Positions 23,834-61,000 of a stretch of 64,000 nucleotides of DNA are shown piece after piece. Position 1 is the stretch's first letter. The number at the start of each line of letters is the position of its first letter. Position numbers and translations under genes: made by a program. The stretch lies in assembly GCA_001643675.2 (NCBI GenBank), contig LSRY02000003.1, forward strand, positions 992,001-1,056,000, read 5' to 3'. The notes under the pieces are model-generated. The model did no database searches, was not told where the DNA came from, and saw only the letters and a program-made list of their open reading frames with translations. The stretch is from Monocercomonoides exilis PA203 (Eukaryota; Protista; Preaxostyla).

Positions 23834-24730
23834 GCAAAGAAATGTTTTTTATTTCACAAAAATACGACAAATCATACCAGATTACTCTTTGCTTCACTTT
23901 TCTGAATACAATTTTTATTATGAAAAAAAATAAAAATTTTCTCAGAAATTGAGAAATATTTGATGTTTTTCTTAAAGTTACAAATCAAATCAATTGAAAT
24001 AGAAAATGTATGAAATTTGAAAATTATATGAGCATGCACTTTGATCATTAATGAAGATGGCAGAATCCAAAAAAAAAAAAAAAAAAAGTACCTGAATTTG
24101 TAATTTTTGTTTTTAAATTTCTGTTTAATATGAGTAAATTTCTAAATGGGGAGGAGAGAGAGAGAGAATGTTGAATAAAGTTCATTAATAATTATTGAGT
24201 ATTTTTGAAATTAATCTGTTCTTCAAATGTTCATAAAATTTTATAAGAAACTGTTCGATTATTCTTCTCAGCACACAACATCTTATTAATTTTCTTCAAT
24301 ATCTAATGATATGATTCTTTTCGAATGACATTAACATCAGAAAAAATGCAAGAGTTTTTGTTATATTTATGAAAAGCTTGGGAAAAGGTTTCATTTCACA
24401 AGCCTCATTGAAAGCCAAATCACAAAAATATATTTTCTTACATAATGCATGTGTGAAACGTTCTTTAATAATAAGGAACGAAATGTTTCACTCAAAGAAT
24501 ATTGTTCCACTAGTTTATTCTCTAAATTTTCTCAAAAATTTTTTTGTTATTCTAAAATTTAAATGCATGAGGTTATTGGAATTGAAATGATACAACTGAG
24601 GAAAAGTTTTGAACAACACATTGTTTTACTTTCATAAATGGGGAAAAACATGTCACTTCAGGAATTTTGATTTAACCTCTGTGACATGACAAGAGAAAAT
24701 TGAAACAATGACAAAATGACTGACACGATA

Positions 24731-25106
24731 CAGATATCGCATAAAATACCGGACATCGCACAAAATACCGGACAAGATCGATATCTCAATAACAGCAAGA
24801 AGAAAAATTCTGTTAAATTTCCTCAAAATATACCTCATTAATACAAACTCACATGACATGCAAGACTTTCAGGACAGCTTCGCTTGAGCTCAGAAAAAAT
24901 AAATATCGAAATTTCGGAGAAATAGGATTTTGATTCTCTCCGAGATTTAAAAAATTATTTTTTCTGAGCTCAAGCGAAGCTGTCCTGAAAGTCTTGCATG
25001 TCATGTGAGTTTGTATTAATGAGGTATATTTTGAGGAAATTTAACAGAATTTTTCTTCTTGCTGTTATTGAGATATCGATCTTGTCCGGTATTTTATGCT
25101 TATCTG
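24731..25106. mobile_element. Foldback MITE (Tc1/mariner-type ends), copy 2
   Basis: TA|CAGATA...TATCTG|TA. Near-perfect arms of ~135 bp around a central spacer (cggagaaataggatt...tctccg) that is shared with copy 1. Confidence 0.88.
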
Positions 25107-25687
25107 TATTAATGATTTGTCAAAAAGGGTTTTTAATGACGATTTCATAATTCTTAATTACATAAATCATTAATTTGAAATTCAATATATAACAATTCTC
25201 ATTATATTGAGAAAATGTGTCATTATTTTTCATATCGTAACTTTGTTCGAAGAAAGATCTTTTTTTTCATAATAGTGGTATGAGCAATAAAAAAGCTCAA
25301 ATATGAGTAAATAAGTGCGGTGTGAAAGAACTGTGTTCAAATTACAAAAAAATAAGTGAGTTTGAGAAAATCACAAAAATGCCATTATTATATTTATTTT
25401 TAAGATATTTTTAATATTTTAATTATTTGATATCCCAGCACCCAACAAGTTTAATTATTGTTTGCAGATAGTTGAAATTTGAGTATGATTTAATTACATA
25501 ACTTTTTTAAATGATTCGTATGAACTATCACTGAAAAGAAACGGTTTATTGATTTATAAAATATGATTCGAAATTACAAAGTTTTTTATTTTGGAAGTTG
25601 TTTCTTTGAAGAATTTATTATATTTTTGTTTGATTAATATTATAATTTTTGTAATTTGAGAATTTTAAACAAATTTTAAAACATATA

Positions 25688-28010
25688 CCATCGGTGGAAA
25701 ATGCGGTCACTGGTGGAAAATCCGGTAGTTGGCAGAATCGAATTGTTGAACATTTTAACATTAAAAATTCATTTGCTCTCGCACTGAACAATTTGGATTT
25801 TGTTTTTTTTGAGAGTTAGAGTTAAACTTGGTTGAATTAAATTAAAAAAAAAACATTATTCATTCACAACTTCATTATTTTTCTTTGAAATGAAATGAGA
25901 TAATGATGAATTAGGCGCTGAGTTTCAAAAAACGAAAACTGGCAACCATATTTATGTGCAGCAAAAAATGATCCTTCTTTTTTTTTCAGTTGTGATTTTC
26001 TGAATAGAGTTCGTCATCTATTTTTCTCCTTTTGCATGAACGAAGCTGTGTAGTGTTCTCAATGCTTTTTGTCTCTTTCCTATCATAAATATAACTAATT
26101 TCCTTTCCATACAAATAATCATCATCTATTCTTTCTCTTCTCAATCTAATTTTCTTTTTCTTAACGTCAACTAATTTCTTCAATATACTTTGTTTATTTT
26201 CCTTTTCTTTACTAATTTCGATTTTTTCTTCCTTCTTTTCTTTCGGCTCCTTTTCAATTGTCTTTTTTTCTTCGCTTTTTTCTTTTAGTTGACGTTTTTC
26301 CTTTGGAGAAAAATCTCCAAATAAATCCTTCTTCATATCATTTGAAATATATTTTGATGAGAACTTTTGAGAAGATGAAAGCGGACCACATATCCTTGAC
26401 AGCACAGGAGCGGCGCACACCGGATAAACTCCTGAATTCGAAAATGAAGATCTTTTGACCGAAGGAGTTGTTGCCGCTGTTAAAGCTTCTGGCAAAGCAT
26501 CTGCCAAAGCTTTTCTATATGAAGAGGTTGAAAATTGAGTTGGCCTTGCAAAAGAGTTTTGAAGAACTTGTTTGAACCTTGCAAACACACGGTTATCGCA
26601 AGGTTGCAAAAGGTGAGTCATGTTAGAAGGGAAAAATTCAACGATGAAATTTCTTTGTTCAGCAAACGCAATCACTTCTGAATCGAAGTGAGTTCGGTGA
26701 TTATCCAATAAAAGAAGAGCTTTTTTCGAAGATGAGAGTTTTAGTTTATTTGCAATTAATGGAAGCCATTTCTTTGTCATTATCCTTCGAAACAATTCAG
26801 CAGATATCCATCCAGATGAAGACCCCTCATAAGATACATTGAATGAATAAAAATTAGAGAATTCCTGTGGAATTTTTTTCGAGGGTATATTAGTATATGA
26901 GGAAGATGTGAGCAGTCTGCGCAAATGCACACACAAATAGTTGCATTTTCCATTTTTGGCAATGAAGATGGGGAAGGAGGTGATTGGTTTTTCAGGCAGA
27001 CTACCAGTTTTTCTGTTCCATCACCTACACGAAACGAAGATTCGTCAAAATTGTAAATATCAGTCTCATTAATTCTATTGGCTGTGATGATGGAGGACAA
27101 CTTTTTGAACCACGAATGCATTGCTTCTGGAGATTGTGCGTTAATTTTTGCAATTTCCATCGGCCTGGAAATTGAAGTCCTTAAAATTGAACAACTTTAA
27201 ATCAAATCATACGCATATTTGGAATTGACCTTATTTCATATTTCTTCGCATTCGCAATCTGAATTCACAATGTCTTGTATCTATAATATATAAAAATATA
27301 AAACAAAATAATCTAATTCTTCAGACCATTGCTTGAATATCCTTTAGTCGGATTATTTTTTTTTCGGATAAAAGTGCAATAACCTGATTTTCAACAGTTT
27401 CCAATTGTTTTTTTGTAATAATTGTAGGTCTGCCGACTTTGCCAACTTGCCGTTTTGCTTTCAAAGCAGCCATTCCTCTTTCCCATGCTCCATTCGAAAT
27501 AGCTTTGGATCCTACAGCAGTTTTCCACGTGACAGCATATTTCTTTTTGATTTCAAAGACTTTTTGGGAAGGAGAAGAAAGATTTCGGTAATCTGATGCT
27601 GCCATAAGCCTGTGAAGTTCTTTGGAAGATATTTTTTTGTAATTTCCATTATTATTCATTTGATCAAAAATTGAATTAATTATATAAATAAGAATTTTAA
27701 TGAAAGAAAGCCAATTTTTAACAATCAAGAATTAATATATGTGAAAAAATAGTCATTTGCTTTAATTTTCACATAAGAAGAAAATTCATTACTTTTATTT
27801 AATCAACAAAAGTTAGTTTTTATTTCTTCGGAACTTGGAAGTTTTTTCGATGATTGCAGTAACAATCTTTCAAGCTGTGCAGGGGTTGAGCTTTTGAAAG
27901 ACGTTTCGTTCATTATCTTAAAAATAGTCAACTTATTTTCTGTTCTTTTTGGTTTTCAGATAACTTGGACTACCGGATTTTCCACCAGTTACCGCATTTT
28001 CCACCGATGG
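25688..28010 (-). mobile_element. pogo/Tigger-like (DDE_1) DNA transposon
   Basis: ~42-bp TIRs CCATCGGTGGAAAATGCGGT(C/A)ACTGGTGGAAAATCCGGTAGT with TA on both sides; transposase gene inside. Confidence 0.92.
25986..27659 (-). pseudogene. pogo-family DDE_1 transposase, frameshifted
   Basis: Motifs GRPT, IYNFDES, SSGWIS, LLLLDNHRTH, FPSNMTHLLQPCD. Probable intron ~27281-27325 and a frameshift near 26880. Confidence 0.87.
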
Positions 28011-28199
28011 TAAATATAATTCGAAATATAAATGAATAAATAGACTTTCAAAAGGAAATGACGAATTGTTTGATAAGATAATAAGATATCAAAGAAATTC
28101 TGTGAAAAAATAAAACATGAGGTTAAAATTTGCTTTTTCATTTTAAAAGTTTTTTTTATTTATATTGTTTTTTTTTTTATATAAGGATCTTTTTGTGAA

Positions 28200-31100
28200 T
28201 GTTCAACGTTGATTCGCATATAGAAACAAAAAAATGACGTTTGAGAAGAGCCTGATAAGATGGCAGAAGATATTAAATGAAGAACAAATGGAGAATGAAC
28301 AGACGCAAAAATTGAAACAAATGGATTAGATAATATTTGAGAGATGAAAATGGTATTTTGAAAGAAGGAGGAGAAGTTACAGAAGAGAGAGCGGAATATT
28401 GAAGAAATGGACGAAAAAGAAATCTGACAAACTTTCGATAAAAAAAGAAATTTGATGAGGAAGACGTTTGTAATAGGCAATTCGATGAATTAGATGTCAG
28501 CATAACATTAATCCCCTTTTCATTGTTTGCTTTTCTTTTATCTTTTGTTCTGTTGAAACACTTTATGTCTTCTGTTTTGATAGTTCTCTCATCAATATCC
28601 AACGCCAATCGAAACAACTTCGTCTTTCAGAAAGAAGAAGGACAATGCGTCCCAAGTGATTGCGCCAGATGTTGAAGAAGATGAAGAAGAAGAAGATACC
28701 GTTGAGCTTAATGTATTAGAAGACAATGATCTGACAGTAGGAGCAGAAGAAGATGAGATGTCTAACCTGGAGAACTGAAGAGGAGAGGAAGGAATGGCAT
28801 TAGATGAGGGTGGATAACCAAAAGAGGAAGAGGAGTAGGAAGAAGAGAAAGAAAAAGAAAAAAAGATGATAAGGAAGAAAAGGAAGAGGAAGAAGAGGGA
28901 AAAGAGGAGAAAGAAGAAGTGGAGTTGCTATTTGTGATTAAGACTACTGTGGATGCAGCGATGATGTGGATTGGAAGAGAAAGCAGAAGAATAATAAGAA
29001 TGATAAGAAGAAGAGGAAAAAGTGTTATTTCTAAAACCATGATAATTATTTTTATTCTTATAAGCAATTGTTTGAGAGCGAAGATGTTTGCTTCTGGATG
29101 AAGAGGCATTATTCATTTGGTTCAATTGTGTGTAAAAAAAAAATCCAATTGTTAAACTGATGTTGCATCAGCTGTTTGAGATCGTGTGTGGTGAGGAGAA
29201 GGAAACTGGGTGGCTATATCGAAAGAGGGGGAGTTAGGAGTAGGATGAGTGGAGGTTGAGGTGAAGGCGGAGGAGGGAGAAGGATTAGATAAAATTGAAG
29301 AAGAAGAGGAGGATGAGGAGGAGGAGGAAGAAGAAAATGATGATGATGAAAAGGAATTGAAAGAAAAAGAGAATGACGTTTTATTGAAAATTGATCATAA
29401 AGTGGTAAAATCTGCACAAAAGAGGAAACATGAAGAGGAAAAGCACAAAATTATCTATTTCAGTTCAAGGCGATGGTGATAACAAATCAGAATATAGCTT
29501 TGGATCAGCGAAAAACAAAAAATGATTAAAGCAGCATCAACAACGAAAACATCAAAAGAATGAAGACGATGAAGCAGAAGTTGAGCAGACAACCATCGTC
29601 ATTCATCCCAAGTTTGTCTCACATAAGCTTTCATTTCGTTTTTTTACTCGTATCTCTGGATTCCACATTTTTCCCCTCCTCTTCTAACTGTTTTCTAATC
29701 TGTTCAATCTGGGCGATGCTCTTCTGGCACAGAAAATGGATTTTGTGAAGCCAACGGAACTCATCCTCCTCTTCAGCCATGCTGCTCATGCTTCCATCCT
29801 CTTTCAATTACTCTCTTCACTCAGTCACGCTATGCCCACTCTGCTGCAGAGAACAGAATCATCATTGATGGAAGAAGAAGAGGAGGAGAGGAGAGAGGAA
29901 GGTTTTTTCAAAAAATCAGGAAAAGGAGATGCTTATAAAGAAGATTCTTCAACAATTAGAAGCATTGAACAAAGACCTATAGCGAATGAAAAACTTGTCA
30001 GTTTCTGAAATGATGGAATTACTGACAAAACTTGAGAATTCTCTTCTTTCTCAGCTTTCTGAAGGCTCATCATTCATCTACATGCTTTCTCCAACAGCTG
30101 CTCGTTCATGTTTCCACTCTCTTCTTGTTATTCTTGTGTGAATTCGTAGTGCTTCACTTTTTCTTTCGCCTTCGCTCAGAAGGATGAGCTACGATAACAC
30201 AGCTCTTCTTGCTCTGCTCTACACACTCGTATTGACTGAGTGGAGGACGCTGCCGCTTCAACTTTCTATATCACAGAAGATAAGAGAAATCATGAAGAAG
30301 CACAAGAAGCTGTGGAAATCAAGTTATGGAATAGAGAAAGAGGAAAGAAGAAGCGAAGAACCAGACTATTAAAAAAAGAAATGACAGAAAAAGGCAACAA
30401 GGCGGTGGAAACAGCTTGCGAAGAAAACAACGGAAAACAATCTGTATCTCTTTTCTCCAAACCCACAACGCGTCATTCACACTCAGACCCAATCAGAAGC
30501 TAAAGCAACAATACCTTCTCGCTCTCTCCGTCTTTCCCCGCACTCAGCCATTAAATTGCACCTTATCAACCACATCCTCCCAAACTGAGCTATCCTCCTA
30601 ATGCCATTCAACATCCTTATTTTCATATCCAATTGCAATTTCAAACACAAACTCTTTATCCATTCTCCTTCTCTGCAACATCTGCCTACCAGCATGAATA
30701 TTAATATCAGTATCAATAGCCATCTTATCCCTCCTCTTCCTGTTCGATTCTCTATCCTCCTGCACACACCTTCTCTCTTGCAATCCAATTCGTCCTGTCG
30801 CCTTCAACTTCTCATTCCTCTTCTTCCTCTTTTTCCTCTTTTTCTTTTCATTTCTCTCCTCATCATTATTTGCCACTTCTGATTGATTCCTGAATACTTT
30901 TTTGCTTCTCTCTTCGATTTTTCACATAATGTGTCTGTGCCTGTTGTGATTATTATCATGCAAAACTTCAATTCCCGCTCGCCTACTGCAGAAAAACTTT
31001 CTTTTCCTTCTCTCTCTCTCTTCATCTTCTTCTCTTTGTTTTTCCCAAGCTTTTCTTTCTCTCTCTCTTTCTTGTAATGGTTTTGATTTATTATTTTAAA
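28200..31100. pseudogene. Decayed host-gene-like fragments (acidic/low-complexity) carried inside element A
   Basis: Coding-like Glu/Lys-rich stretches with many stops; no intact ORF. Confidence 0.4.
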
Positions 31101-33516
31101 TTAATTGTTTATTTTGAAATGCATTTTTTCTTGGATATATTTTTTAAAATCAGCGTTTGACAGAATATTGAAATGAACTTATTTCTTATCAATGTGAATA
31201 TTAGATGTTATTTGTTCATTTATTAATTTTTCATGATTTATTCAATGATCGCTTTTATATTTTGATTAAAATATGTTGAAATACACAAATATGATAAATA
31301 CGAAAAAGATGGCTGTTATTGGTGGTATTTTCTGTTTTATATTGTTGAAGAAATCAACAGAAATATACTCACTGCTTGGAATAAAAATATTAGAAAATAC
31401 AATTGAATAATAACAAAACAGTATGACACAACGTTGCAGTCTTCGCACCCTTCATTAATCATATTTTTAATTAAATAAATCGACAATATTCACAAATTAT
31501 TTCCTTATTCGTTTTCCTTTCTTCTTTTCATCTTTTCAAATAAATGAAATTTTACTTTGTTCATTCAACCCTCTTGTTTCATAAATCAAATAAAAACAAA
31601 TGCTAATCAAGCAAAAATATAATAAATTCTTCAAAGAAACAACTTCCAAAATAAAAAACTTTGTAATTTCGAATCATATTTTATAAATCAATAAACCGTT
31701 TCTTTTCAGTGATAGTTCATACGAATCATTTAAAAAAGTTATGTAATTAAATCATACTCAAATTTCAACTATCTGCAAACAATAATTAAACTTGTTGGGT
31801 GCTGGGATATCAAATAATTAAAATATTAAAAATATCTTAAAAATAAATATAATAATGGCATTTTTGTGATTTTCTCAAACTCACTTATTTTTTTGTAATT
31901 TGAACACAGTTCTTTCACACCGCACTTATTTACTCATATTTGAGCTTTTTTATTGCTCATACCACTATTATGAAAAAAAAGATCTTTCTTCGAACAAAGT
32001 TACGATATGAAAAATAATAGATGGTATTGGAATAAGAAAAATTTATTGAAATAAAAATAATAATTCAAATAACCGAAGTATATTCTAAGCCAATGCGACA
32101 GACCGACATTTTTTAAACAACTCGACAACAAGACCGACAATTTTGTCGAGTTTAATTTTTTTATTATTAAAAAGATTTTTTCATTTTATTTTTATTTTTT
32201 GTTAATGAAAAACGAAACAAAATCTTTTTATAAATATTTTTATCGACAAAAATATAAATAATTCAAAATGGAAATGATAAATCAAATATTTTTCTTTTTT
32301 TTATTAAAAATTCTTATAATAAAAATGGGTTATCGGTAGATCTTTGTCGAGATCAGTCGAACGACAAAGATCAGTCGTTTGACAAAGATCAGTCGAGTTG
32401 TAAGATATAAATGTGAATAAATGATTTTTTAACAATTGTTTATTATTTTTTATTTTGAGACTTTCACTCATTTGAAGATTTCACTTTTTTCTCATTTTTG
32501 AATCATTCTGGCTTTGATTTCTTGTTTAGAAGTTCAATGATTTGGTTTAATTTTATTTCAAATGTTGCATTGTTCAAACAAGATTTTTTCATCAATAATT
32601 TTAAAAAGGAAATGGAGTTTTGCATATTTCAAACAATTCTCTTTTATCTTTTTGGTTTTGATTTTTAATACAAATTTGATCATCGTTTCAAAAATGACAT
32701 TTGATTGTTGTAGTTATTCTATGAAATGATAAAGTGGTTATTTGGAGACTATTATTGTTTCTAATAAGTGTAAAAAAATTCTTTTGTTCAAAGTTAAAAT
32801 TTGCACAAAAATATATGATGAGTTTCTTTTTCTATAACATGAAACTGTGATAACATATAAGTGAAGGAATATTATTTTCTAAACAAAATAAGTGAATGAA
32901 ACGAAGTTCAGAAAATTTCGTATTATCCAGAGAATGAAATGTTGCTCTATTAGAGTGACTTCGTGAGATGGCATGAATATTAGGAAACCACAATGATGAA
33001 GAAGGATCAGATGGAGCTTCATGCGAAGCCGAAGAGAACAGTAGAAAAGAAAATGGCTGAAATGTAAAAATAGTCTGATGGAGTGAAGAACATCCCATTT
33101 ATCGGAAAGAAATTGTTTGAAAGAAGAGAGAAGGCAAAAGAGGGAAGAATGAGAATGAGAAGAAGAGGAAGAAGAAATAAAAGATTTGTATAAAAATCAT
33201 GTGATGAAGAGGAGGAGAAGAAGGAGAAGGAGGAGGAGAAGAAGATAGTGACGAAGAAATTTGACAAGAAAATGGTAATAAAGTTTAGGAAGATGTGTGA
33301 AATAGAAAAGAAGATTATCATTGAATGAAATTCACCACAAAATCAAATTATTTCTGAAAAAATTCAAAAATATTAAATCGCTAAATAAAAGTCACTCAAA
33401 AAGTGCAATGAAACAACAATTACATAACAAAGTTCTTTTCTTTCTCCTTCTCTCCTTCTCTCCTTCTCTCTCTTTCTCAAAAAAACAAAAATAAATAAAA
33501 AATTTAATCATTTCTA

Positions 33517-35050: not shown

Positions 35051-35346
35051 TGTAGAAGCGGGCTTAATCAAATGAACTGGTCAAATAAAAGAGGAAGAGG
35101 AGGAAGAAGAAGAATAGAAAAATATTGATGCATGAGTTATTTTTCTTCGAGCTTATTTAATATCAACGTTAAAATTATCGCTATTTATCAATTCCACATC
35201 AACAGCAAATATATCACAAAAATCTTCCATTCAAAACCATTGAATTTATCACAAAACAACATTCAAATTGATTCCTTTCATATATCTTCTCCAGTTTTTT
35301 CACAATTTTCTCATTTGTTTTCAAAACACAAAACATATTATTATTT

Positions 35347-35593
35347 GAGATATGGTATATCAGCTATAGATCCATCTCGATTAGGTCAATCAATATTATC
35401 GATTTATGAATATCTGGTGGGTGTTATCATCTTGTATATTAAGTTGAATAGGAAATGATAATAAGATAGAGATCGGGGGTTTAGACTGGTACTCTTAGGG
35501 GTTTATCATGATTAGATTTTCAGTGATGTTCTATAAAGAAGGGGTATTGATTGGTGTAATCGATATGTATCTATAGCTGATATACCATATCTC
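35347..35593. repeat. Terminal imperfect palindrome/hairpin (~247 nt), mirrored at 40391-40637
   Basis: GAGATATGGTATATCAGCTATAGAT (35347-35371) pairs perfectly with 35569-35593; pairing continues inward with mismatches. Confidence 0.85.
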
Positions 35594-35814
35594 CTAGGAG
35601 GAGAATTAGCTAAAACATTAACCGAAAGTGTTCAAGTTGGTAAATTAATGGTGAAATTGTGTGAAAATTGATACTATCGTTGATGAAATACATGAGTTTG
35701 TAATAACAGGTATATGTGTTGAATGTGTTTGTTGATCGTTGATGAAATCGTTGGTGTGATCATGAGTGAAATCGTAAATAAAAATAATTGATTTTGTTTT
35801 TTGTTTTATAGCAA

Positions 35815-36066
35815 ATGGGTCGGAAGAAGATATACGCAACTGTGGAAGAAGCTAAAGAGGCTCAACAGAAACAAATTAAACAGTTTCAGGAAAAACGAAA
35901 AGAAGAAACTAAGTATTACAACGAACATGTATCTGAGAAACAGAAGAAGTTGATTAAGATATTGAGGAGAAAGCTTATCGAAAGAGATGAGTTGTTAGAT
36001 GAGTTGATGGAAAAAGTTAATGGTTATTTGCATGCACAGGGTGGACAGGTTAAGCTGGTCAGGTAA
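35815..36066 (+). CDS. Small basic coiled-coil protein (83 aa), putative DNA-binding; encoded in the left TIR
   Basis: Intact ORF MGRKKIYATVEEAKEAQ... with a GRKK/GRPK-x-Y-x-T-x-EE-type N-terminus, preceded by TTTTATAGCAAATG. Confidence 0.65.
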   Translation: MGRKKIYATVEEAKEAQQKQIKQFQEKRKEETKYYNEHVSEKQKKLIKILRRKLIERDELLDELMEKVNGYLHAQGGQVKLVR

Positions 36067-36972
36067 TGAGCAAATTGATGAAATATAACAGACCACACTC
36101 GTTCGTTGTACCGTTAGTTGAATCGCAACGAACGCAGACGAAGTCTGCTTGAGGTGCTATGCACCGAAGTTGCTCAAGGAGACTTTGTCTCCGTATCAAA
36201 CAGTAGTCACGATGACATTGTGGTGGATTGCCAACATCAATATTTTTTGAACAAATGGCAGTATGGTGGATTGCCACATTGATGTTTTTCACTTGATTTG
36301 GGTGTTGTTTTGGTGTATTTACTCGGAAAAAGTGTAAATCGGTGTCCAGGATACCAAATTGTGGCAATATCTGAGACTCAGCGGAAGGGAAATATTGACT
36401 AAAATCTCCGTGCTGGAAGCGTGTCCAGGTGTCCAGGTGTCCATGATCTCCAGATTTCATCTGAAAAGAGCTGCCAACATGCCATTTCTGCCAACATGGG
36501 CATTTTACCCCAAATTTGCTATAATTTTGAGTGTTTTTATTTATTTTCGATAATGTTGTCATCTTGCCACATTGCTACATGGAATCGTTGATGTTACACA
36601 TTATTTATATTGTTAGTGGCACACATTAGTTATATCGTCCGTGACACACATCAGTTGCATCGTCGGTTGTTAAGAACAGTTATCACACTGCACCGGGTTG
36701 ACAGTGCAGGTAATGTGAGTGATCTGTGGCTGGGAAATATTGGGTTAAATCTCCGAGCTTGTCACCTGGACTGGGTGGACCGGGTCAAATATATTCTAGA
36801 AATTATGTGGGCAAACAAGCAAACTGAGCAAATTGGGAAAAATACATTTAATGTGAAAATTAACTGTTTTCCGTCAAAGTTCGACATTAACCTCAACATC
36901 ATCTTCCCCGTTATTTCACGTTTCAAAAATAAATCTGTTTCAAAAAAAAATTGTTTTTTTTATTTTTATAAA

Positions 36973-39313
36973 ATGACAAACCCCCAAACAGACTCTGACA
37001 ACGTAATCCAACAACTAATTGATTCAATTTCAACAGAACAGCAAACGCTTGGAGAACGAATGAAAGATCACCTTGTTAACTTGTTCGACTACAAGAAATA
37101 CTCTGACAAGAAGCAGGGCCAACGACACACTGGAACAGCTGTCGATATCAGGAAATGTGAGGATTTTTGTGTCGTTGATGTTGATATCAACAAATCCCTT
37201 CAAACTGAACAAACGAAAACCATCAGGAATTCCATTCTCGAGAAACTCCCCCGAAACGTCGGACTTGCACAAACAGCTCATGGTGGTCTTCACATTTATT
37301 GTGAGCTATGTGGTTATCCCCTCAAATGTTCATCACAAACGAAAGTGTTCACGAGTCCAGAGAACGATATCGACATTTTGTAGGTATTGGAGATGGAAAA
37401 CAGAGGCTTGTTGTTCAAGCTGACTCTTCATTCAGAGAGATGAAAGATGGCAAGAGAATCATCACCAAATACATTCCCCTCAACAATTACAGACAGCTCA
37501 CAGATCTTTCATCACTCGAGAGTGTTCTTGACGTTTTCGGCATTGACCTCAAAACAGAGAATACATCAGCGACAATAGCAGCTGAACCACACAATCTTCT
37601 CACACAAGATGGTGTGGTTGATATGTCTCCAACTGTCGCTCTTGCTCTTGTCGATGGACTCAAAGATGTTGAAATACATAACGACACAGGTTCTTTGTCA
37701 TTTGATTCTGAGTTAACTCTTTTACCGTTGTTTGCAGCTCTCAACTCTCTCTTCAACATTAACGGTTTCGACAACCAATCGATTGATTTTCTGTACAATC
37801 AAATCAGAGAGACAGCTGCTCTAACAGCAAATGCAATCACTCACTTTGAAGAGAAACGAAACAGGTTCAGAGATAACAAGTCGCATCCATTTGTTCTTTA
37901 AAAGATTGTCAAGAAATGGAATCCAACATATTACAACGATGTGATTATTCCACTCCTCAGAAAAGAGAATGAGCAAAAGGAAGAACCTCCACGAGAGATT
38001 ACTGTTCATGAAATAGATCTCAACTCATCGTTCTCATTCTGTGAAATTAGGGATCAAGCTTGTCGAAAGCAATACTCCTCACTGTCTGAAGTCGCTGAAG
38101 ATCTCACAAAAGTTTTAATGTTTGTCGAAGCAAGGATGGAATTCATTGTGAAAGAGTTTGATATTCACACCTCTTGTTATTCAATTACATTCAAGACAAA
38201 ATTAGCAATGTCCGAACTGTTCAAAACAATAAAACTCTGGCATGATGATAAAAAGACTCTCACAGTTGAGACAGCTTTCATACAATACTCTCATGTTCTA
38301 TCGATTGATAGGGTGAAGTTCTTTTCAGATTACACTCGGATATTCTCTCTGTTCCATGGGTTCAAATACCAAATGGAAAACGAACAAAATGACGAAATCA
38401 TCAAACCATTCCTCGATTTCACACGAGAAGTTATCGCCAACAACAACGAAGAACTCTATCAATACATCCTCTGTTGGATTTCGTCAATTGTTCAAAATCC
38501 TGGTAAAAAAGCAGAAACATCACTTGTTCTCAAAGGTTTGCAAGGTATTGGAAAGAACGTCTGGACAAATGTACTTGCTGAACTGTTGGCAGGACATTCA
38601 TGTTCAAATGTCACAGAGATTGCAGAACTGTCAGGACAGTTCAACTCCATCGTCGAAGGGAAAATGCTGATTGTTCTTAACGAATTGAAGAATGTTGGAG
38701 ATGATCGAACAGCTAACTTTGATGCGTTGAAGAGTATAATCACGGATTCAACAATCAGAATCAACGAGAAGAATTAGCCAAGAAGAACAGCTGAGAACGT
38801 TGCAAATTTCATATTTGTGACAAATCACACATTCACGGTTAATATTGAGATTGGTGACAGAAGATATGTTGTTAGTTATTGCAACTCAAAATAGAAAAAC
38901 AATCTCATATTCTTCAAGGATTTCACAAGCTCTTTCGACAATGAATTCTATGAACAACTTCTCTGTTATTTCCTCAGCAAAGATCTCTCCAATTTTAACA
39001 CAAGAGCTATTTCAACAACGGAGGCGAACGAAGATATCATTGCAGCATCACTCTCTATCATCGATGTGTTCTGTCAGGAGCATTTCAATAAACTCAAAGA
39101 ATGTGGAGATGTTCTGAAGCACTATGTTTCAGACCAGTTGAATACAAGAACGATCGCTCATTCCAACTAGCAATTATAGACAGATGTGAGCACAAGAGAA
39201 TGGGTGGAAGAGATGGCCGAGTGTGGTGTTATAAACTCAAGCCAGAGTATGAACAACTCCTCAGACGACGAGAAAATGAAGATGACATGGACTGTTCTGT
39301 GGAAATCAACTAA
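36973..39313 (+). pseudogene. Fused primase-polymerase (Prim-Pol, AEP) + SF3/D5-like helicase (DUF5906-like), ~780 aa, disrupted
   Basis: AEP motifs FCVVDVDIN and AQTAHGGLHIYC. Walker A KGLQGIGKN, Walker B LIVLNE, motif C NFIFVTNH, Arg finger GDRRY. Frameshifts at ~37378 and ~39100; in-frame stops at 37899, 38775 and ~38892. Confidence 0.88.
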
Positions 39314-39917
39314 ACATATTCGTTTTTATGGAATCATTAATACATATACTATACAACTTGTGTGCCACTAACAATATAAATAATGTGTAACATCAACGAT
39401 TCCATGTAGCAATGTGGCAAGATGACAACATTATCGAAAATAAATAAAAACACTCAAAATTATAGCAAATTTGGGGTAAAATGCCCATGTTGGCAGAAAT
39501 GGCATGTTGGCAGCTCTTTTCAGATGAAATCTGGAGATCATGGACACCTGGACACCTGGACACGCTTCCAGCACGGAGATTTTAGTCAATATTTCCCTTC
39601 CGCTGAGTCTCAGATATTGCCACAATTTGGTATCCTGGACACCGATTTACACTTTTTCCGAGTAAATACACCAAAACAACACCCAAATCAAGTGAAAAAC
39701 ATCAATGTGGCAATCCACCATACTGCCATTTGTTCAAAAAATATTGATGTTGGCAATCCACCACAATGTCATCGTGACTACTGTTTGATACGGAGACAAA
39801 GTCTCCTTGAGCAACTTCGGTGCATAGCACCTCAAGCAGACTTCGTCTGCGTTCGTTGCGATTCAACTAACGGTACAACGAACGAGTGTGGTCTGTTATA
39901 TTTCATCAATTTGCTCA

Positions 39918-40169
39918 TTACCTGACCAGCTTAACCTGTCCACCCTGTGCATGCAAATAACCATTAACTTTTTCCATCAACTCATCTAACAACTCATCTC
40001 TTTCGATAAGCTTTCTCCTCAATATCTTAATCAACTTCTTCTGTTTCTCAGATACATGTTCGTTGTAATACTTAGTTTCTTCTTTTCGTTTTTCCTGAAA
40101 CTGTTTAATTTGTTTCTGTTGAGCCTCTTTAGCTTCTTCCACAGTTGCGTATATCTTCTTCCGACCCAT
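39918..40169 (-). CDS. Second identical copy of the 83-aa basic protein (right TIR)
   Basis: Translation identical to 35815-36066. Confidence 0.65.
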   Translation of the reverse strand: MGRKKIYATVEEAKEAQQKQIKQFQEKRKEETKYYNEHVSEKQKKLIKILRRKLIERDELLDELMEKVNGYLHAQGGQVKLVR

Positions 40170-41399
40170 TTGCTATAAAACAAAAAACAAAATCAATTAT
40201 TTTTATTTACGATTTCACTCATGATCACACCAACGATTTCATCAACGATCAACAAACACATTCAACACATATACCTGTTATTACAAACTCATGTATTTCA
40301 TCAACGATAGTATCAATTTTCACACAATTTCACCATTAATTTACCAACTTGAACACTTTCGGTTAATGTTTTAGCTAATTCTCCTCCTAGGAGATATGGT
40401 ATATCAGCTATAGATACATATCGATTACACCAATCAATACCCCTTCTTTATAGAACATCACTGAAAATCTAATCATGATAAACCCCTAAGAGTACCAGTC
40501 TAAACCCCCGATCTCTATCTTATTATCATTTCCTATTCAACTTAATATACAAGATGATAACACCCACCAGATATTCATAAATCGATAATATTGATTGACC
40601 TAATCGAGATGGATCTATAGCTGATATACCATATCTCTATTATTCTGGTAAAAAATTTTCAAAAAATTTCAAAAAAATAAAAAATAAAGAATAAAAAATA
40701 AAAAAAAAGAAAGTAACAGTAAAATTTAGGTAATACTGATATATTCACGAATTGCAAAATTCGGGAAAAAACAATCATATCAATCTTTTCGACAAATGAA
40801 TATTTTCTCGACAGACAAATTGCACGCAAAAAAATTGTGTCGCAGAGGCCTAGTTTATTCCAGATAACACCAGTTTATTCGAACCAAAAAAGTATATTCC
40901 AAAAAGACCAAGTATGTTATAATTAATCCCTCAACAAAAATTTTTATGATCCTTTTTGTCAATTCGAATGAACTAAAAAATCAGAATATTTTTTGATAAA
41001 AAGATATTATTAACACATGAATGTTTAATCCGAAAAATTTTGTCTGACAGTTATGGTCCAAAATAAAAAAATGATAATCTGAAAATTCATTCCAAAGGAT
41101 TGGAGATCGAATGGAATGGCAATTAATTCTACAAAACCTAAAAGACAATATTTATCGAAAAATGAATAGAACTAATGAAATGCAATATTTGAGGGGTTTC
41201 ACTCAATAAAAGAAGAAGCGTTAAGAAAGCGAGGTAAGGAAGCTCTATCTATCAAATTATTCTGAGAAAAGAATCAATGTTTTGAATTTAAACCAATATT
41301 CAAAGTTGTTTACGAAAAAAAGACATCTTCTCGTAAATTTTCAAATATGAAAATATGTATTGGAACAGAAAACTGCAAAGGAGAGAGCTCGCCTGCTTG

Positions 41400-48756: not shown

Positions 48757-48800
48757 CAGGGAACCTTCAAAATATTATAATATACTATTTCAGAAAATAT

Positions 48801-51690
48801 GGGTCATTATTTTTCTTATCGAAACTTTGTTCGAAGAAAGATCTTTTCTTTCATAATTGTGGTATGAAATGAAAAAAGTGAAAAACACATGTTTATAATT
48901 GAATAGAAAAAGAATGGTGATAGAATTACAAAAAAAATAAGTGAGATTGAGAAAATCGAGATAATTCCATAATAGGATTTATTTTTTCAGAATTTTCTAA
49001 TGTTAAAATTATTTAACATCACGACTCCTTACAAGTCCAGTTATTGTATTAAAATACTTATAATTTGAGTGTGATTTAATGATATTACTTTTTTATATGC
49101 TTCAAATCACTTATCATTTGAAAATAATTGTTTTATTGATTTATAAAATTTCTAAGCGAAATTGGTGAAATTATTCTTTTGTGCAATATTTTTCAAGACT
49201 TTTTATGTATTTACGAACTTTTTGAATTCAATTTTGGACGAATTGTGATATTATAACGATGTGATGATGCAGCAAATCTTTTGCGATGTGAAATAGAGCT
49301 TACAGATTTTAAAATGAATTTTCGATTTTTTTTGAGACGAAAAAGGAAGAAAATGAAAATTTTTAAAGGACAAAAACAATAAGAGGAGTTGGTTCTTTTC
49401 ATTTTTTAATTTTTAAAAGGATTTAATTTTTATTTATGTTTTATCATTTAGATATTAGGATCTTTTTTCAAATGTTTTCAGCCAATTGGCACACACGAAA
49501 TGAAAAAAAAGGAAAGGAGATGAGAAATTTTGTGAGGAATTAAAGGAACAAATCGGTTGAGTTGAAGTGGATTGAGCTGATTGGAGATGAAATTTGGAGA
49601 ATTGTGTGTGGTTTGAGAGGAAGTATGGTTGTGATGAAGGGAGTGTGTTGTGGAGATGGGGAGAGGCAAGGAGGCAGGGGTGTTTGAGCTGGGCGGGTGT
49701 CGAGGGGTGTTTTGGAACATCACGCTGAAAAGGTTTAAAAGGGGAGGAAATGTGTGTGGGAGACTGTTTGGAGGAGAGGGGAGGATGGGGCAGACGAGGA
49801 GTGAGAGAGAAGGCGGAGGAGGAAGAGGAAGAGGTGAAGGAGGAGAGAGAGGAGGACCACGAGAAGGTGGAGGAAGAGGAGGAGAATGAAGAGGAGAAGG
49901 AAGAGAAGAAGAAAGTGAAGGAGGAGGGAATGTATTTGTGTGTGAGTCAGATTTCTCATCTTTTTATATTTCATCAGCCCCATTTCTGTCGCCTCCCTTG
50001 ACACCCCTTGTATCTCTTTCCAAACTGACCTTCTTCAACATCTCGACAAATCCACAGAAAACAAGACAACTGGCTGAAGGGCCGAGCCAAACCTCGTTTT
50101 TGATGAGTGGATGTGAATTTTCATCGGTGTGGGATGTTTATGATGGGGGCATTGTCCCTTCACTGAACAGCCCCTCATCATCCTTGTCTGCCTCGAACAC
50201 CTCGTTTGTCGGATGCTATCGGTCTCAGAATGTTGCAATCAGCGGGAGTGAAGGAAATCCATCGAAGCCAGCGAGACAGAATCAGACAGACGATGGGGCG
50301 AATTCTTTCACTTGGTGTGTGTGGAACGGCACAAAAACCACTGGGACAAGTAATTCTTATACAGATGGAGTTTCGAGTGGAGGGGCGATTAATATGTATA
50401 ACAAAGCATCGGGAACGGTTTCAGTGAAATTTTGTTCGTTCAATGACTGCAATGCAGACTTTGCTGAGGGAGAAATAATGTGCTATATAATCAATTCAGT
50501 CAAGATTGAGAACAATTCGTTCAATGCATGTTCTGCTCAAAATCGTTATGGAGGAGGGATGTATGTTAATTCTATTTCGTCATGTGTCAATATCAGTGGT
50601 TGCAAATTCCAGAAATGCAAAGCATATTGTGATGGAGGAAGGTTTTTTTTGTCAACTTTTCAGGTTTCTGGAGCAGACTGAATAGGAACAATAAATAAGT
50701 CAAACGTTTGTGAATGAAACGAAGTTTTGCAATAAAGTAAATTCTTTTTTTTTGGATTTCATTGATTTAACATATTTTTCCTCACCTTTTTTGTTTGTTT
50801 TATCTATTTTTCTTCATTTCACATGTTCATTGATCAATGAAAATAGAAAAATTGCTGCAGCAAGTTATATGTTATAAGAAACATCAAAATAATGTTTTTT
50901 GTTTTATAAGTTCTTCTATCAAATATATCAAAAACATGTTGATCTCATAAGAAAACAGATAAATGGATTATCTCATCAACATAAATAAAGTGTTAATATC
51001 AAAAATAATGAACTTTTTCATAAAAATTAATAATGTTCAATGATTGAAATAAAGAAAAAGCAAAAAACGATGAAAAATAAAATAACATCTTTATTTGACT
51101 TTGCTGTCTCTTTTCAATATTTATCCAAAATGATCGTAATGATAATATGTAATTATCAAGATTTGACCTCACTTTCATCTGATTACTCGTTTCATCATTG
51201 AAAAAAACAAAACATTTATTTTCATGAACACTTTGTAACTTTCGAACATCTCTATTCGTTCAAAATTGAATTCAAAAAGTTCGTAAATACATAAAAAGTC
51301 TTGAAAAATATTGCACAAAAGAATAATTTCACCAATTTCGCTTAGAAATTTTATAAATCAATAAAACAATTATTTTCAAATGATAAGTGATTTGAAGCAT
51401 ATAAAAAAGTAATATCATTAAATCACACTCAAATTATAAGTATTTTAATACAATAACTGGACTTGTAAGGAGTCGTGATGTTAAATAATTTTAACATTAG
51501 AAAATTCTGAAAAAATAAATCCTATTATGGAATTATCTCGATTTTCTCAATCTCACTTATTTTTTTTGTAATTCTATCACCATTCTTTTTCTATTCAATT
51601 ATAAACATGTGTTTTTCACTTTTTTCATTTCATACCACAATTATGAAAGAAAAGATCTTTCTTCGAACAAAGTTTCGATAAGAAAAATAA
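48801..51690. mobile_element. Long-TIR non-autonomous element A2 (same family as element A) with surface-protein cargo
   Basis: ~430-bp apparently identical inverted repeats 48807-49236 / 51261-51690. Left terminus GGGTCATTATTTTTC; the right end lacks the last few bases. Confidence 0.8.
49480..50681 (+). pseudogene. 5' fragment of a beta-helix surface-protein gene (cargo of element A2)
   Basis: DGGIVPSLNSPSSSLSASNTSF and NSFTWCVWN...GGAI match DGTILPNLNSPSTSLSAFNASF and HRFEWCEWN...GGAL of the 8496 protein; truncated and frameshifted. Confidence 0.8.
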
Positions 51691-54800: not shown

Positions 54801-56013
54801 TTATTGAGGGAGAAGTGGTTTGAAGGTGAAGCTAAAGAAATAAATTAAAAATTTTTGCTGGAAATGTTTCTGTTGTTGTTGTTGTTGTTGTTGTTGTTGA
54901 AGCAATTGGATGTTTTGCAGGTTGTTTTGAACCTGAAAAAGCACTTCCTGTCACTGCAGCTGCGATTTGGACCAAAAATTATAGCAAAATTAGATGATGT
55001 TCTGGGATGTGATTGATGTGATTGATGTGACAGAAGAAGATGAAGAAGAAGAAGTTGGATTGGAAAGAGAAAAAGAGGAGATGTTGGAAAGAAACGAAGG
55101 AGAGGAGTTCATTAGAGGTGGAAGTGGAGGAAGAGAAGAAACAGAGGAAAGAACAAAAAAACAAAATAAATGATCACCTTACAGATTGCTTATCTTTTTT
55201 TTTCATAATGTTTTCAATGTTAATTCAGCTCTCTTTATCAAAATTGTGTGTTATTTCTTTCTCTTTTTTCCTGAATTACAATTGAATTCAAAACATCTCA
55301 GAATTTATGCTTCTTCATTTTATTCCAATTTGTGTGAGATGTTTGCGTGTTGCAATTGAATTATGATGTGTAAATTATCGCAAATAATGTTAAATCCTTA
55401 TCTTCAGTTTTGACAATTCAGTCAAACTTCATTACTTATCCATCTTATTTGACAATAAAATCAATTATTCCTACCAAACCTTAAGTGCATGTTCTCCCTT
55501 TTTTGACATCAAATTTGATGTTTGTTCACAAAACAAAAAATATGTGATTTTTATGGAATGCAATCAAAAACTGTTTTTTATTTATATCATTAATAACATT
55601 AACATTTGAAAGGAGATGAAATGTTTTGCAGAATGAGGTCTTGGACTGATTATAATATGTGTCAGACAGATAAACACTCAATTTCTTAAAAGAACAAAAA
55701 AATATTTCAAGTGATAAATGTCATTTTTAACAAAATTGCAATGAAAGTCAATATCTGAATAAAAAGAAATGTTTTCGAAAAAATCATATTTATTCGACAG
55801 ATAGATCTTTTCGAACGATTGATCTATGTAGTTCGACTGATCTCGACAAAGATCTGTCGATAACCCATTGAAATTATTAAATATCAATAAATTAAATATT
55901 TGTTTGTTGTTATCTTATAAAAAAAAAATAAATTAAAAAATAAAAAATAATTGAATAAAAATGGAAAAACTTAATCTTGATTTGTTGTTTTTCCGGTTAT
56001 CAAAAAAAAAAAA

Positions 56014-56046
<33 letters not shown>

Positions 56047-56124
56047 AAAAAATAAATTAGCTGACTGTTTTGTCGGTCGACTTGTCGAGCCATGAAGAAA
56101 ATGTCGGTCTGTCGCAAAGGCCTA
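51870..56124 (-). mobile_element. Non-autonomous hAT element with captured host sequence
   Basis: Perfect 15-bp TIR TAGGCCTTTGCGACA. Perfect 8-bp TSD GTTTAACA (51862-51869, 56125-56132). Subterminal CGAC repeats at 55790-55862 and 56060-56115. Confidence 0.92.
52500..55210 (-). pseudogene. Decayed coiled-coil host gene fragment(s) as hAT cargo
   Basis: Broken minus-strand ORFs 53456-53740 and 54024-54254, rich in E/K/R/Q heptads; multiple stops. Confidence 0.5.
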
Positions 56125-56174
56125 GTTTAACACTTCGTTTTTTTGTTATTTTTTTTACTTCACTAAATTTCAAC

Positions 56175-56460
56175 AAATTGGGAAAATTTTTTCACTTCAG
56201 GTATTTTCATTGAAAAAACATGCACTTTTCATTGACTTTCAGAGAACAAAAAACACAATAAAAATTTGTTCATTTTTTGGTATTCGTGAAATGTCAAGAA
56301 ACTTTATGTTTTTTTTTCAACGATGCCTGTTTTCTGAAATGAAAATCAAATTTTTTTTGAAATCTGAGAAAGTGAAATAAAGCTATGAGTGAAGCAATTT
56401 TTTAATGCCTTGTGCAAAAAAAGCTTGAAAGCCCGTATATTCCTCCAAATGGAAGATTTT
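56175..56460 (-). repeat. Diverged inverted copy of the 50-340 repeat
   Basis: Same colinear blocks as 50-340, on the opposite strand. Confidence 0.7.
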
Positions 56461-58060: not shown

Positions 58061-61000
58061 ATGAGTGAAATGACTAAAAATGACTTTATCAAAGAATTGC
58101 CGATTGAATTACAAAAATGCGTGTCAGCGAAAAATATTGTTTGGCAATCTCATTTTATCCCAGCATGTATAATTATTTATTTTTTAAATATGATTCATCC
58201 TTGCAGCTTGAAGCGTTTGAAAGAAAAGTTGAGGAATTAAAGAACAATGAATGCACTTTCGTGGAATTTATTAGAACAAAATCATCCAATGGCGGAAATT
58301 GTATGTTTCTTATTAAATATCACTCAGATTAATTTGCATTTTTCTGCTTTAAAACAAGTCTTCAAACACCCAAACAATACTGGAGAAGAAATTGGAAAGA
58401 TTCATTTTGAAACATGTAATGGAAAGCTTTGGCTTTCATATACTCCTGTCAAGACAGATGGATCTCTTAAAAAAGATGGACATATTTATTTCTTGTGCCC
58501 AAACAGCAAACAAGGAATCAATTGTGCCATCTCCGGGCGAAAAGGATGCGATAAAGTTGTGAATCATCGATGCGCATTGACAACTGCATCAACAATTTTA
58601 CCATATTTCAAGTTTCATCCAATTTCAAGATTGTCTGAAGCGTCAGCAAAGAAAATTGTTCCAACTCATTTTCAATTTGATTCGTTGGTTGAGCAATATT
58701 TTCATTTAATTGGTCATTGCAACATTGCTTTTCTTTCTGCTTACTCCAATGAATTTAATAAATTTATATCTTCATTAATTATTGTATCTCAACATAATCC
58801 ATCTCTTTCACCTACAACCATATTTCCAACTCTCACATATAGAAAGCTGACAGCACTTATTCAAGAAGAAGGAAAGAAAAGAATTTCTGAACGAAATGCA
58901 AAAATATTCAATTCAATGGTTGCCGTAATGATGGACGGAGGGATAGTTGCTGGAAAAAAATACACTGTCATCACAATTGTTCCGTTGCAGACAAAGGCAT
59001 CTCCATTTTTCTGGAAAATTGAAAAGGCATGTTTCACAACCACTGATTATTTCAATCTGGCTAGTGATATTATTGGAGAAGTTTCGAATTTGAAAGGAGA
59101 AGTGCGCTGTTTTTGCACGGACGGCTTGCTTCCACAAAAACTCGCAATTCAAAGCTTTGCAGATCATTCGAAGTTGTGCTCAGACGAAGAAACACCGAAG
59201 AAAATTTCACCCATATTTGTTTACTGTTGTTACCACTTAATCAATCTAATTGTCATACGCCTTTTTAAGGATAATTCATTTTTCGTTCAATTAAAGGAAG
59301 AAATTACATCATTTTCAAAGTTAACAAGAAAATCATCAATAAAGAACCCGTTTTTACCGAAATGCCCTTCTTTCATAGAAACGAGGTGGCTTTGTCTTTT
59401 CGAAATATGTTGTTTTATAACAAAAAATCTTCACAATGCGTCATTTACAGATTTTTTATCCAAAGAAAAAATTGATGATGTGATCCGATGTGAATTATTA
59501 CTTGCACCTCTGAAACAACTGCAGTTATTATTTGAAAACGATGAAACAAAACTTGGCGATGTGTTTCCCAATGTTCTGAAATCCATTGCACAATACATGT
59601 GGTTGCAAGATCTTGAGGAATTTTCTTCCCCCGATTGGCAATATGGAGTTTGCTTTATTGTAATCCAACTGTTCAATTCATTTTTAGGGAAAGAACGAGG
59701 AGATCAAATCGCTTTGGCTCATTCCTTAACTCCAATTGGTATGCTTGAATATAGAAACGGTTTGCTTTCAGAGTCTTATTCAACAGAACTTATGACATTG
59801 AAAGAAAAATACAGGCTGTTCAAATGTTCATCTGCATTTTCAAAGGATTCAGATCAAACTCAAATTCAAAGGATGCGTTGCAACACATCTATTCAATCCA
59901 CAAAAGATTTTATGCCAAGTGACTCTGTCTTTCTTTGTCCTTCTAAAGAAATTCCAAATACTGTGTTCACAAAGAATCAATAGAAAAAGTTACGAACATT
60001 TTCTCATGTAATGGAAGATAAGAACAGCGAAAATGGATTTTTTACAGACAAACAATATGCGCTTTCATTTTTTTCAAAGAGTGAAAAAACTAAATTTCCA
60101 ACAAATTTTCCTCATCCAATATTCTCTTCTCCGTTATCGGTTGAGACTTTTTATTCTGCTCTCCAATTTATAAGCCCAGAAAAAGATAAAATAGCAGACG
60201 CAATTACTGAAACACAAGTTCAACTTCAGCCGCTTCCAAAAGATTTGCACTCCATATCATCGACTTCACCAATCTATACACCAAACAACAGATTGCCACA
60301 TTTATTAACTCTTTTGACAGAAAATTCACTGATTGAAAAAGAAGCAATTTCAAATGAAGATGAAAACCTTGATGAAATTGATTTCGACGAAGCAGGCATT
60401 ATTCAAGCAGAAAATAATGCAGCTGATGATGAATTCGAGGTTCATTCTCCTTTATGTGTTAGAAGTGAGTAAGAGTCATCATTTTACGAAACAAGAAAAA
60501 ACCATTCACTCCTTGAAGATCATGACATGCAATCAACTTCAACAAAAAAAGATGAAGACAAAAGCTCAGATAATGTTGAAAACACTTCAGAAGATGACAA
60601 AGACGTTGAAGAACTTGGCGCAAATGAATTTTCAGTCATTGATTGCACAATGTCAGCAGAACAAATCAAGAAATCTCTATTCAAAATCCAACAAACAATC
60701 AGTATGGATTGGTTTCTCAGATTAAAGTCAGCATTCAATGATTATCTTCTAAAAAGTAATGTCTGAAAGCTTCTTGCTATATTGAGAGCCTCAAAGCATT
60801 CTTTTCTTCAATTTTTCTGGACGACTCTCTGCACATGGAACATTATAATTCTCAAGTTTTCTATTATGAAATCAGCAAGCAAGGAATTATTCCAACAATT
60901 TTTGCCAATATTTGTTATTCTTTAACAATGTTTCCCTGTAGCGAAGCATCTTGTGAGAGAATTTTCTCTCGCTTAAGACGAATTATTGGAGACAGAAGGT

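Follow-up and report, generated by a model that had tools for sequence, protein, structure and literature searches.

A dead copy of a multicopy inverted-repeat element in Monocercomonoides exilis, probably a reduced Maverick with its own Prim-Pol/SF3 replicase gene

A 5.3-kb element bounded by long terminal inverted repeats (TIRs) lies at positions 35346-40638 of a 64,000-nucleotide stretch of the Monocercomonoides exilis PA203 genome (contig LSRY02000003.1, positions 992,001 to 1,056,000; this whole stretch is the window, in whose coordinates positions are given). The copy is dead, and is interpreted here, with moderate confidence, as one member of a multicopy family that derives from a Maverick of the TvMav3 type, carried its own replicase and depended on the integrase of a helper. 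The unusual minimal build is seen in full at this one locus and is hinted at in other copies. No account of the element was found in the literature searched, Repbase and most subscription papers lying outside that search.

The two arms (35347-36625 and 39359-40637) are reverse complements at 1279 of 1279 positions, with no mismatches and an inter-arm divergence below 0.23% (95% bound). Together they make up 48% of the 5293 nt, as had been proposed in an earlier note on this DNA, made from the sequence alone, which put the inverted repeats at about half of the element. The hairpin ends described in that note were also found, as one foldback of 247 nt in each arm. The left one (35347-35593) has a 49-nt stem that is 90% complementary, and its predicted DNA fold of -40.0 kcal/mol compares with -12.0 ± 2.7 in 100 dinucleotide shuffles (z -10.4). 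The 3′ end of the element is able to fold onto the inner stem. The terminus is a AGAGATATGG-type end with tandem terminal dinucleotides, AGAGA at the right end and TGAGA at the left.

With the boundaries marked by a slash, the element reads ATTATT/T-GAGATATGG at its left end and CCATATCTC-T/ATTATT at its right. The ATTATT pair is perfect, and a chance match of a 6-mer would have a probability of about 0.001 given the flank composition. Reading it as a 6-bp target-site duplication (TSD) costs one mismatch at the terminal base, which is T at the left end although A would be expected from the right arm; in other copies, the last base of the flank consensus is A in 4/4 runs of one sample. An alternative 8-bp duplication, with boundaries one base inward, also costs one mismatch, and a 3-bp duplication fits the (ATT)n tract too, all read at one locus. 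Since the insertion site is an ATT tract, the duplication length is ambiguous; of the 6-bp TSD claimed earlier, the pair is perfect, and 6 bp is one of three candidate lengths. The left flank (35157-35345) is itself repetitive, with a depth of 1,587-1,871 in X1/X2, and the alignment to a paralogous contig (X4 record 26) stops at 35345, as it would for an empty site.

The central gene corresponds to P0004 (MONOS_6054), which is annotated as a ‘putative Poxvirus D5 protein’ with gaps across its breaks, and its best homologues are other M. exilis proteins. Compared with the near-intact paralogue P0003, it is interrupted by three in-frame stops (37899, 38775, 38892) and two frame breaks (near 37380 and near 39100), and the annotated model carries false introns across its breaks. 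The copy is therefore unable to make its replicase, and the term ‘self-replicating’ used in the earlier note is inapplicable to it. The stops are real, because the host reads the standard code, as a 3086-aa open host frame demonstrates. A ciliate-type code (TAA/TAG = Gln, as used by Streblomastix) was considered for the stops and is excluded by that frame; in addition, one stop faces a residue other than Gln in the paralogue, and the two frameshifts would remain. The ‘Poxvirus D5 protein’ models of M. exilis that were checked are decayed mobile-element genes.

The structure of the replicase was modeled from P0003 with AlphaFold on a 40-sequence alignment (mean predicted local distance difference test, pLDDT, 86.1; predicted template modeling score, pTM, 0.56). 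Residues 367-757 superimpose on the NrS-1 helicase (Z 26.2, root-mean-square deviation (rmsd) 4.3, 367 aligned), and the NrS-1 phage helicase region was also found by Foldseek (E 5e-19). Residues 26-196 match Prim-Pols of the pRN1 type (Z 10.2 and 9.5, rmsd 3.4-3.5, about 150 aligned, 151 for Z 10.2) and the NrS-1 polymerase (Z 7.9); the model also matches the SaPI5 primase-helicase, African swine fever virus PrimPol and vaccinia D5. The DxD and GGLH motifs of the archaeo-eukaryotic primase (AEP) superfamily, the Walker A/B motifs, motif C and the arginine finger of the helicase are conserved over the 40 aligned homologues. These fold matches and motifs support the fusion of an AEP primase-polymerase with a superfamily 3 (SF3) helicase that had been read from the sequence. 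Enzymes of the Prim-Pol/SF3 type start and elongate DNA strands with no need for a protein primer.

Outside the replicase gene, each arm carries an open 83-aa open reading frame (ORF), rich in Lys and Arg, in agreement with the small basic ORF described there in the earlier note. A phmmer search gave 8 non-self matches, of which 6 align as a family of distant homologues and 2 are long repetitive proteins; no match to Pfam or PHROG exceeded the cut-off, and Atlas scores were 0.85 or less. The arms and core were scanned against Pfam in nine frames with stops read as X, and the three sense frames of the gene separately. No integrase, polymerase or capsid family was found in the arm and core frames: neither an rve integrase gene nor a module of capsid and A32 ATPase was seen there, and no gene for protein-primed DNA polymerase B (pPolB) was found in frames read through stops, for which there is also no room outside the helicase gene. 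This agrees with the earlier claim that integrase, pPolB and capsid genes are absent. The sole Pfam row at E<=0.1 in the nine frames was DUF6033 (E 0.037, below the cut-off), the longest other stop-to-stop frame in the arm (171 aa) had no Pfam match, and Rfam gave 0 matches on the element.

The family comprises at least 11 gene models of M. exilis, which lie on 9 contigs when P0003 and P0123 are taken as a single model; the ten besides the copy at 35346-40638 are 81-95% identical to it, and all annotated copies look truncated, split or altered. In a FastTree phylogeny, which gave long-branch warnings, the five M. exilis rows used (5/5) form a star-like clade with support of 100, while the support of 91 for a grouping of M. 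exilis with Streblomastix is a hint only. One sample was sequenced in four DNA runs, and raw-read contigs from each of these pass at 35347 into unlike flanks (11, 10, 4 and 5 contigs in the four runs, with 10-11 in the two deepest; flank agreement 0.49-0.56). Many insertions thus share an exact end at 35347, and the element is multicopy. At a second locus, on a contig of 978,991 bp, the accession of the helicase (KAH7819005.1) is directly followed by that of the small ORF (KAH7819006.1), an adjacency on one side that suggests the same layout. The M. exilis genome report, in its available text, describes 35% of the assembly as unclassified repeats and names no such family (PMC8767320).

The depth of the raw-read contigs bears on how the copies are built. 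Core depth is even from end to end, and its sum is some tens of times the depth of a single contig; depth is no copy number, and this gives a rough hint of tens of copies. The 13 arm deletion joints examined (the best-supported 15/65 less two, a selection that favors high depth) have a median depth of 209, compared with 103.5 for 6 core contigs, in X2, and of 69 compared with 30 in X1. Such an approximately twofold depth is expected where each variant occupies both arms of one element, and is moderate evidence that arms occur as pairs. The deletion joints of other copies fall on the degenerate 52-nt repeat motif. Alleles of the present copy at 36450/36451, absent from nearly all other contigs, recur at the mirror places 39534/39533. 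Raw-read contigs (records 17 and 4), one per junction, span the outer and the inner junction of the left arm with 0 differences, but extend only 29-30 bases into the arm.

Homologues of the replicase occur in Trichomonas vaginalis (P0046, 43% identity to the element’s replicase, in a cluster of 198 sequences), Histomonas, Tritrichomonas, Streblomastix and about 100 metagenome clusters. A full-length homologue on contig L008 (40% over 670 aa) adjoins a DUF4108 gene (E 5.7e-6, just below the cut-off), an 837-aa pPolB-like gene and an A32-like ATPase gene (Pox_A32, E 0.0023, below the cut-off). The name of the pPolB-like ORF rests on motifs seen by eye and on Atlas (0.92, DNA_pol_B_2), and searches of Pfam, PHROG and PDB sequences gave it no match. 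L008 is a gut-protist Maverick similar to TvMav3. Of the TvMav3 elements of T. vaginalis, 91.8% have a DNA primase gene and 58.8% have DUF4108 (PMC12289875; see also PMC7845603); P0046 may be the gene listed in the table of PMC12289875 as ‘Maverick DNA primase domain protein’ or the one listed as ‘Poxvirus D5 protein’. Because of the context in L008 and the frequency of the primase in TvMav3, the replicase gene is of Maverick stock, an ordinary gene of TvMav3-like Mavericks. The suspected affinity to Polintons/Mavericks was thus upheld by the L008 context, the tree and the TvMav3 gene content, and candidates for the helpers postulated earlier exist in the same species, in which 6 matches to major capsid protein (MCP) form one cluster (PMC10120064 Tables S1, S4). 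The suggestion of a distinct replicon fared less well: since the replicase belongs to the usual gene content of such Mavericks, reduction from one of them is the simpler account.

Two side observations concern these relatives. L008 (1-9384) is filed in a metagenome-assembled genome of Bacilli from sheep colon, likely through bin contamination. At L001 1150-2649 (L001/L002), a helicase-only relative without a Prim-Pol domain lies between a Pox_A32 ATPase gene and an HNH gene.

In the explanation favored here, the element likely arose from a TvMav3-like Maverick/Polinton that lost its pPolB, integrase, ATPase and capsid genes, and likely spread by being copied by its own primase-polymerase-helicase and inserted by the integrase of a helper Maverick. 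An excised or copied strand would close as a panhandle through the 1.28-kb arms, similar to the racket intermediate described for Polintons (PMC4196379). The SF3 hexamer would load at an arm, and the Prim-Pol would prime de novo or extend the 3′ foldback, so that neither a terminal protein nor pPolB would be needed. Copying of the panhandle would equalize both arms, private changes included, and an rve integrase acting in trans would recognize the AG...CT ends and leave a short duplication. In the weakest step of the proposal, the arm ORF would be a small DNA-binding or end-coating protein. After the burst, copies would have decayed, and the perfect arms of the present copy would have been kept either because it was moved in trans at a late stage or because gene conversion acted on it in place. 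These two possibilities address the puzzle that the arms are near-identical (<0.23%) and share copy-specific alleles, yet the core has decayed. Gene conversion explains both the perfect arms and the terminal mismatch; late movement explains the perfect arms, but makes the mismatch an approximately 1.6% event. Either may hold.

Several observations weigh against this explanation. A terminal mismatch beside perfect arms would be an approximately 1.6% event for a fresh insertion (from the 0.23% bound), and the TSD can be read at more than one length. In two further long-TIR elements of the window the arms are 99.1-99.8% identical, so near-identical arms may have a source other than panhandle replication. 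The selection of deletion joints is biased toward high depth, and the arm/junction contigs of records 9 and 10 are at single depth. Summed depth is 8,169-10,840 at the termini and 1,155-4,311 in the core (X2), approximately threefold rather than the expected twofold, which may mean that part of the termini come from elements with a different core; that other copies are equally minimal is hinted at by one adjacency of accessions and by contig joints. The primase-helicase stands beside pPolB in L008 and TvMav3, and so may be an accessory protein rather than a stand-alone replicase. Finally, the 25-nt terminus had 0 matches in viral contigs, and no helper with these ends was found among them.

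The alternative that best survives is ordinary decay, in which the family consists of normal 15-25-kb Mavericks and the copy is the remnant of an internal deletion, with a gene that was merely left behind and never drove a minimal element. The replicase homologue inside the full Maverick L008 and the helicase-only relative of L001/L002 beside Pox_A32 ATPase and HNH genes are what it would predict, as are the 6 MCP matches in the host (PMC10120064), the frequent absence of genes from TvMav copies (PMC12289875) and the greater depth of termini than of core in raw-read contigs. However, the small ORF adjoins the helicase at the second locus as well, no remnant of another Maverick gene was found with Pfam in the 5.3 kb, and core depth is even throughout. 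Two weak points lie in the same direction: at least 11 helicase models compare with 6 MCP matches, counted by different methods, and no M. exilis name occurs in the best 120 of 527 A32-ATPase matches. Ordinary decay is accordingly considered unlikely, if still deserving of serious weight.

A more far-reaching and improbable interpretation is that the element belongs to a class of its own, made up of linear replicons of gut metamonads that have hairpin ends and neither integrase nor capsid. Such replicons would be copied from self-priming ends by a single NrS-1-type replicase, be satellites of Mavericks or gut giant viruses, and invade chromosomes in bursts.

A mobile replicase that needs no integrase was also considered; here the Prim-Pol/helicase would copy the element into a chromosome break, and ATTATT would be microhomology of the microsatellite. 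The lack of an integrase in the Pfam scan and the ATT-tract site, with its 3-, 6- and 8-bp readings, are consistent with this, and such a mechanism has been proposed for repeat-bracketed AEP genes and the 11 extra AEP-SF3 genes of Bodo saltans virus (10.64898/2026.10.13.758929). But all flanks break at one base, as with integrase or transposase chemistry, and the AG end and candidate 6-bp duplication fit the hallmarks of Polintons (PMC4196379), which makes the idea improbable. A transpoviron-like satellite or linear plasmid, that is, a hairpin-ended episome maintained by rolling-hairpin synthesis, packaged by a Maverick or giant virus and integrated only by accident, is very improbable. Its size and TIR layout resemble those of transpovirons (PMC5499653), the 3′ end can fold back onto the inner stem, and large DNA viruses of the gut have been linked to metamonads, of which Parabasalia are named and oxymonads are not (10.1101/2024.03.23.586382); against these stand a helicase of SF3 rather than SF1, the lack of any enzyme for resolution or nicking, a search of viral contigs that gave 0 relatives (three protein queries, one DNA pattern) and host copies that, where annotated, all look truncated, split or altered. 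An assembly artefact in which the second arm is a mirrored duplicate can hardly be credited: arm identity is 100% in a Canu assembly with ten rounds of Pilon (PMC8767320) and junction support from read contigs covers the left side only, but a unique 2.7-kb spacer separates the arms, the sequences outside them differ from each other and carry a duplicated 6-mer, the left junction contigs (0 differences) diverge at precisely the arm borders, arm variants have twofold depth in raw-read contigs, and the most that polishing might have done is to remove a small number of differences.

Wider searches gave little further context. Queries A1, P0178 and P0101 found 0 loci in viral contigs, and the 4 matches of P0304 were rejected, being to its low-complexity tail only. 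Metagenome contigs gave 7 loci, 3 of them close and none with readable TIRs; genome contigs gave 1 locus for A1 and 0 loci for P0046, P0303, P0082 and P0010. The available text of the egovirus preprint (10.1101/2024.03.23.586382) does not mention Monocercomonoides or oxymonads. Full-length homologues lay on contigs with no more than 600 bp beyond the gene in 39/73 cases, compared with 30/114 for A32-ATPase controls (p 0.002), in a comparison that omitted named genomes, proteins below 730 or 290 aa and proteins without an initial Met; the difference was found in Logan-only rows (19 vs 13 rows, p 0.003), and the others gave p 0.22 (54 vs 101 rows). Short metagenome contigs were dropped as an indication that minimal elements exist elsewhere, since P0070, whose contig measures 2786 bp, is almost identical to the L008 protein, which lies within a Maverick.

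The features of the element are collected in the table.

Table. Coordinates of the element and its parts within the window.
Feature	Positions	Strand	Remarks
Whole element	35346-40638		5293 bp; host Monocercomonoides exilis
Left ATTATT copy, candidate 6-bp TSD within ATT microsatellite	35340..35345	.	
Left terminal inverted repeat	35346..36625	+	35347-36625 equals right arm; 35346 is the sole mismatched terminal base
Left terminal foldback	35347..35593	+	49-nt stem (35347-35395 with 35545-35593), 149-nt loop
83-aa basic helical ORF, open	35815..36066	+	88% identical to MONOS_17995
Degenerate 52-nt direct repeat, arm copy	36363..36414	+	core copy 36709-36759, 73% alike
Unique core, 2733 nt	36626..39358	.	
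Pseudogene of Prim-Pol (pRN1/NrS-1 type AEP), SF3 helicase and C-terminal domain, ~780 codons	36973..39313	+	MONOS_6054
Right terminal inverted repeat	39359..40638	-	end TCTCT (5′-AGAGA on minus strand)
Mirror copy of 83-aa ORF	39918..40169	-	
Mirror terminal foldback	40391..40637	-	
Right ATTATT copy	40639..40644	.	

The window contains further repeats. Two related long-TIR elements (25209-32018 and 48793-51690), 76% alike, have arms of 415 bp (99.8%) and 446 bp (99.1%), respectively; no transposase of their own was found in them, and in both the shared sequence runs approximately 13 bases beyond the inverted match on the left side. The second encloses a 263-aa frame (49890-50681) that by eye resembles a piece of the large host protein at 8388-17648, a possible Pack-type capture. 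At 25683-28015 is a nested pogo/Tc1-like element with 47-bp TIRs (96%) and a minus-strand DDE_1 transposase in several frames (E 2.6e-16). A 580-aa frame at 58241-59983 has motifs of a hAT-like transposase by eye and no Pfam transposase match, and dispersed repeat ends related to it lie near 50-318, 32039-32390 and 55804-56460. Two copies, about 80% alike, of an approximately 340-bp palindromic unit similar to miniature inverted-repeat transposable elements (MITEs) occur at 1693-2065 and 24728-25099, the arms of the second being 96% complementary. Paralogous C-terminal kinase-like regions of a large family of host membrane proteins, 72% alike, lie on opposite strands at 16467-17329 and 62060-62897.

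If the minimal layout holds across copies, the family would be a chromosomal, multicopy element of the Polinton class reduced to its ends and a primer-independent replicase, and would put a name to part of the 35% of unclassified repeats in M. exilis. It would also be a test case for the proposal that AEP-SF3 replicases move on their own, and for how capsid-less satellites may have come from Polintons.

By the genes that define them (PMC5499653, PMC3671162, PMC11296320), the element is not a Polinton, a Polinton-like virus or a transpoviron; it works like the end-plus-replication module of a Polinton. Polintons/Mavericks have TIRs of 100-1000 bp (PMC4196379), slightly exceeded here at 1279 bp, and a terminal tandem repeat of 1-3 bp, seen here as AGAGA/TGAGA; their length of 15-25 kb is not approached by the 5293 bp of the element. 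As in a non-autonomous Maverick derivative, dispersed copies share one precise terminus, and a gene of Maverick origin, judged by the L008 context and the tree, is retained. The MCP and packaging ATPase of a Polinton-like virus were not found in the element, whereas the primase-helicase replicase is present. The closest comparison is with TvMav3 and L008, which have TIRs and the same Prim-Pol/SF3 family, the AG-type end and 6-bp duplication being Polinton features (PMC4196379). Those elements are 15-26 kb rather than 5.3 kb long, and the TIR of TvMav3 is 100-130 bp (PMC12289875) rather than 1279 bp; unlike them, the present element lacks pPolB, integrase, ATPase and capsid genes and has a gene in each arm and a terminal foldback.

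End modules with a primase-helicase linked to TIRs have been described (PMC11296320), and AEP-only elements bracketed by repeats have been reported for Polisuviricotina and proposed to be self-mobile, so the idea of an AEP-only mobile replicase is already present in a 2026 preprint (10.64898/2026.10.13.758929). Those elements share with the present one an AEP(-SF3) gene between repeats and the lack of integrase and capsid; they are single cases in viral contigs or a giant virus, whereas the present element is a dispersed family in host chromosomes, marked by long TIRs, a precise terminus and a candidate TSD. Transpovirons are likewise small, TIR-bounded and capsid-less, and their presumed ancestors are Polinton-class viruses that lost genes (PMC5499653), but they carry an SF1 (Tlr1-like) helicase fused to an inactive pPolB, where the family described here has an SF3 helicase fused to an AEP with intact motifs. 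The NrS-1 phage polymerase-helicase, pRN1 ORF904, SaPI5 PriRep1 and poxvirus D5 share the fold and domain order of the replicase; at 17-21% identity this is a likeness of proteins only, the genes belonging to a phage, a plasmid, a satellite and a poxvirus. MITE-like and deletion derivatives of DNA transposons keep their cis-acting ends, have lost the integrating enzyme and persist as many decayed copies; unlike them, the element keeps a full replication enzyme and an arm ORF.

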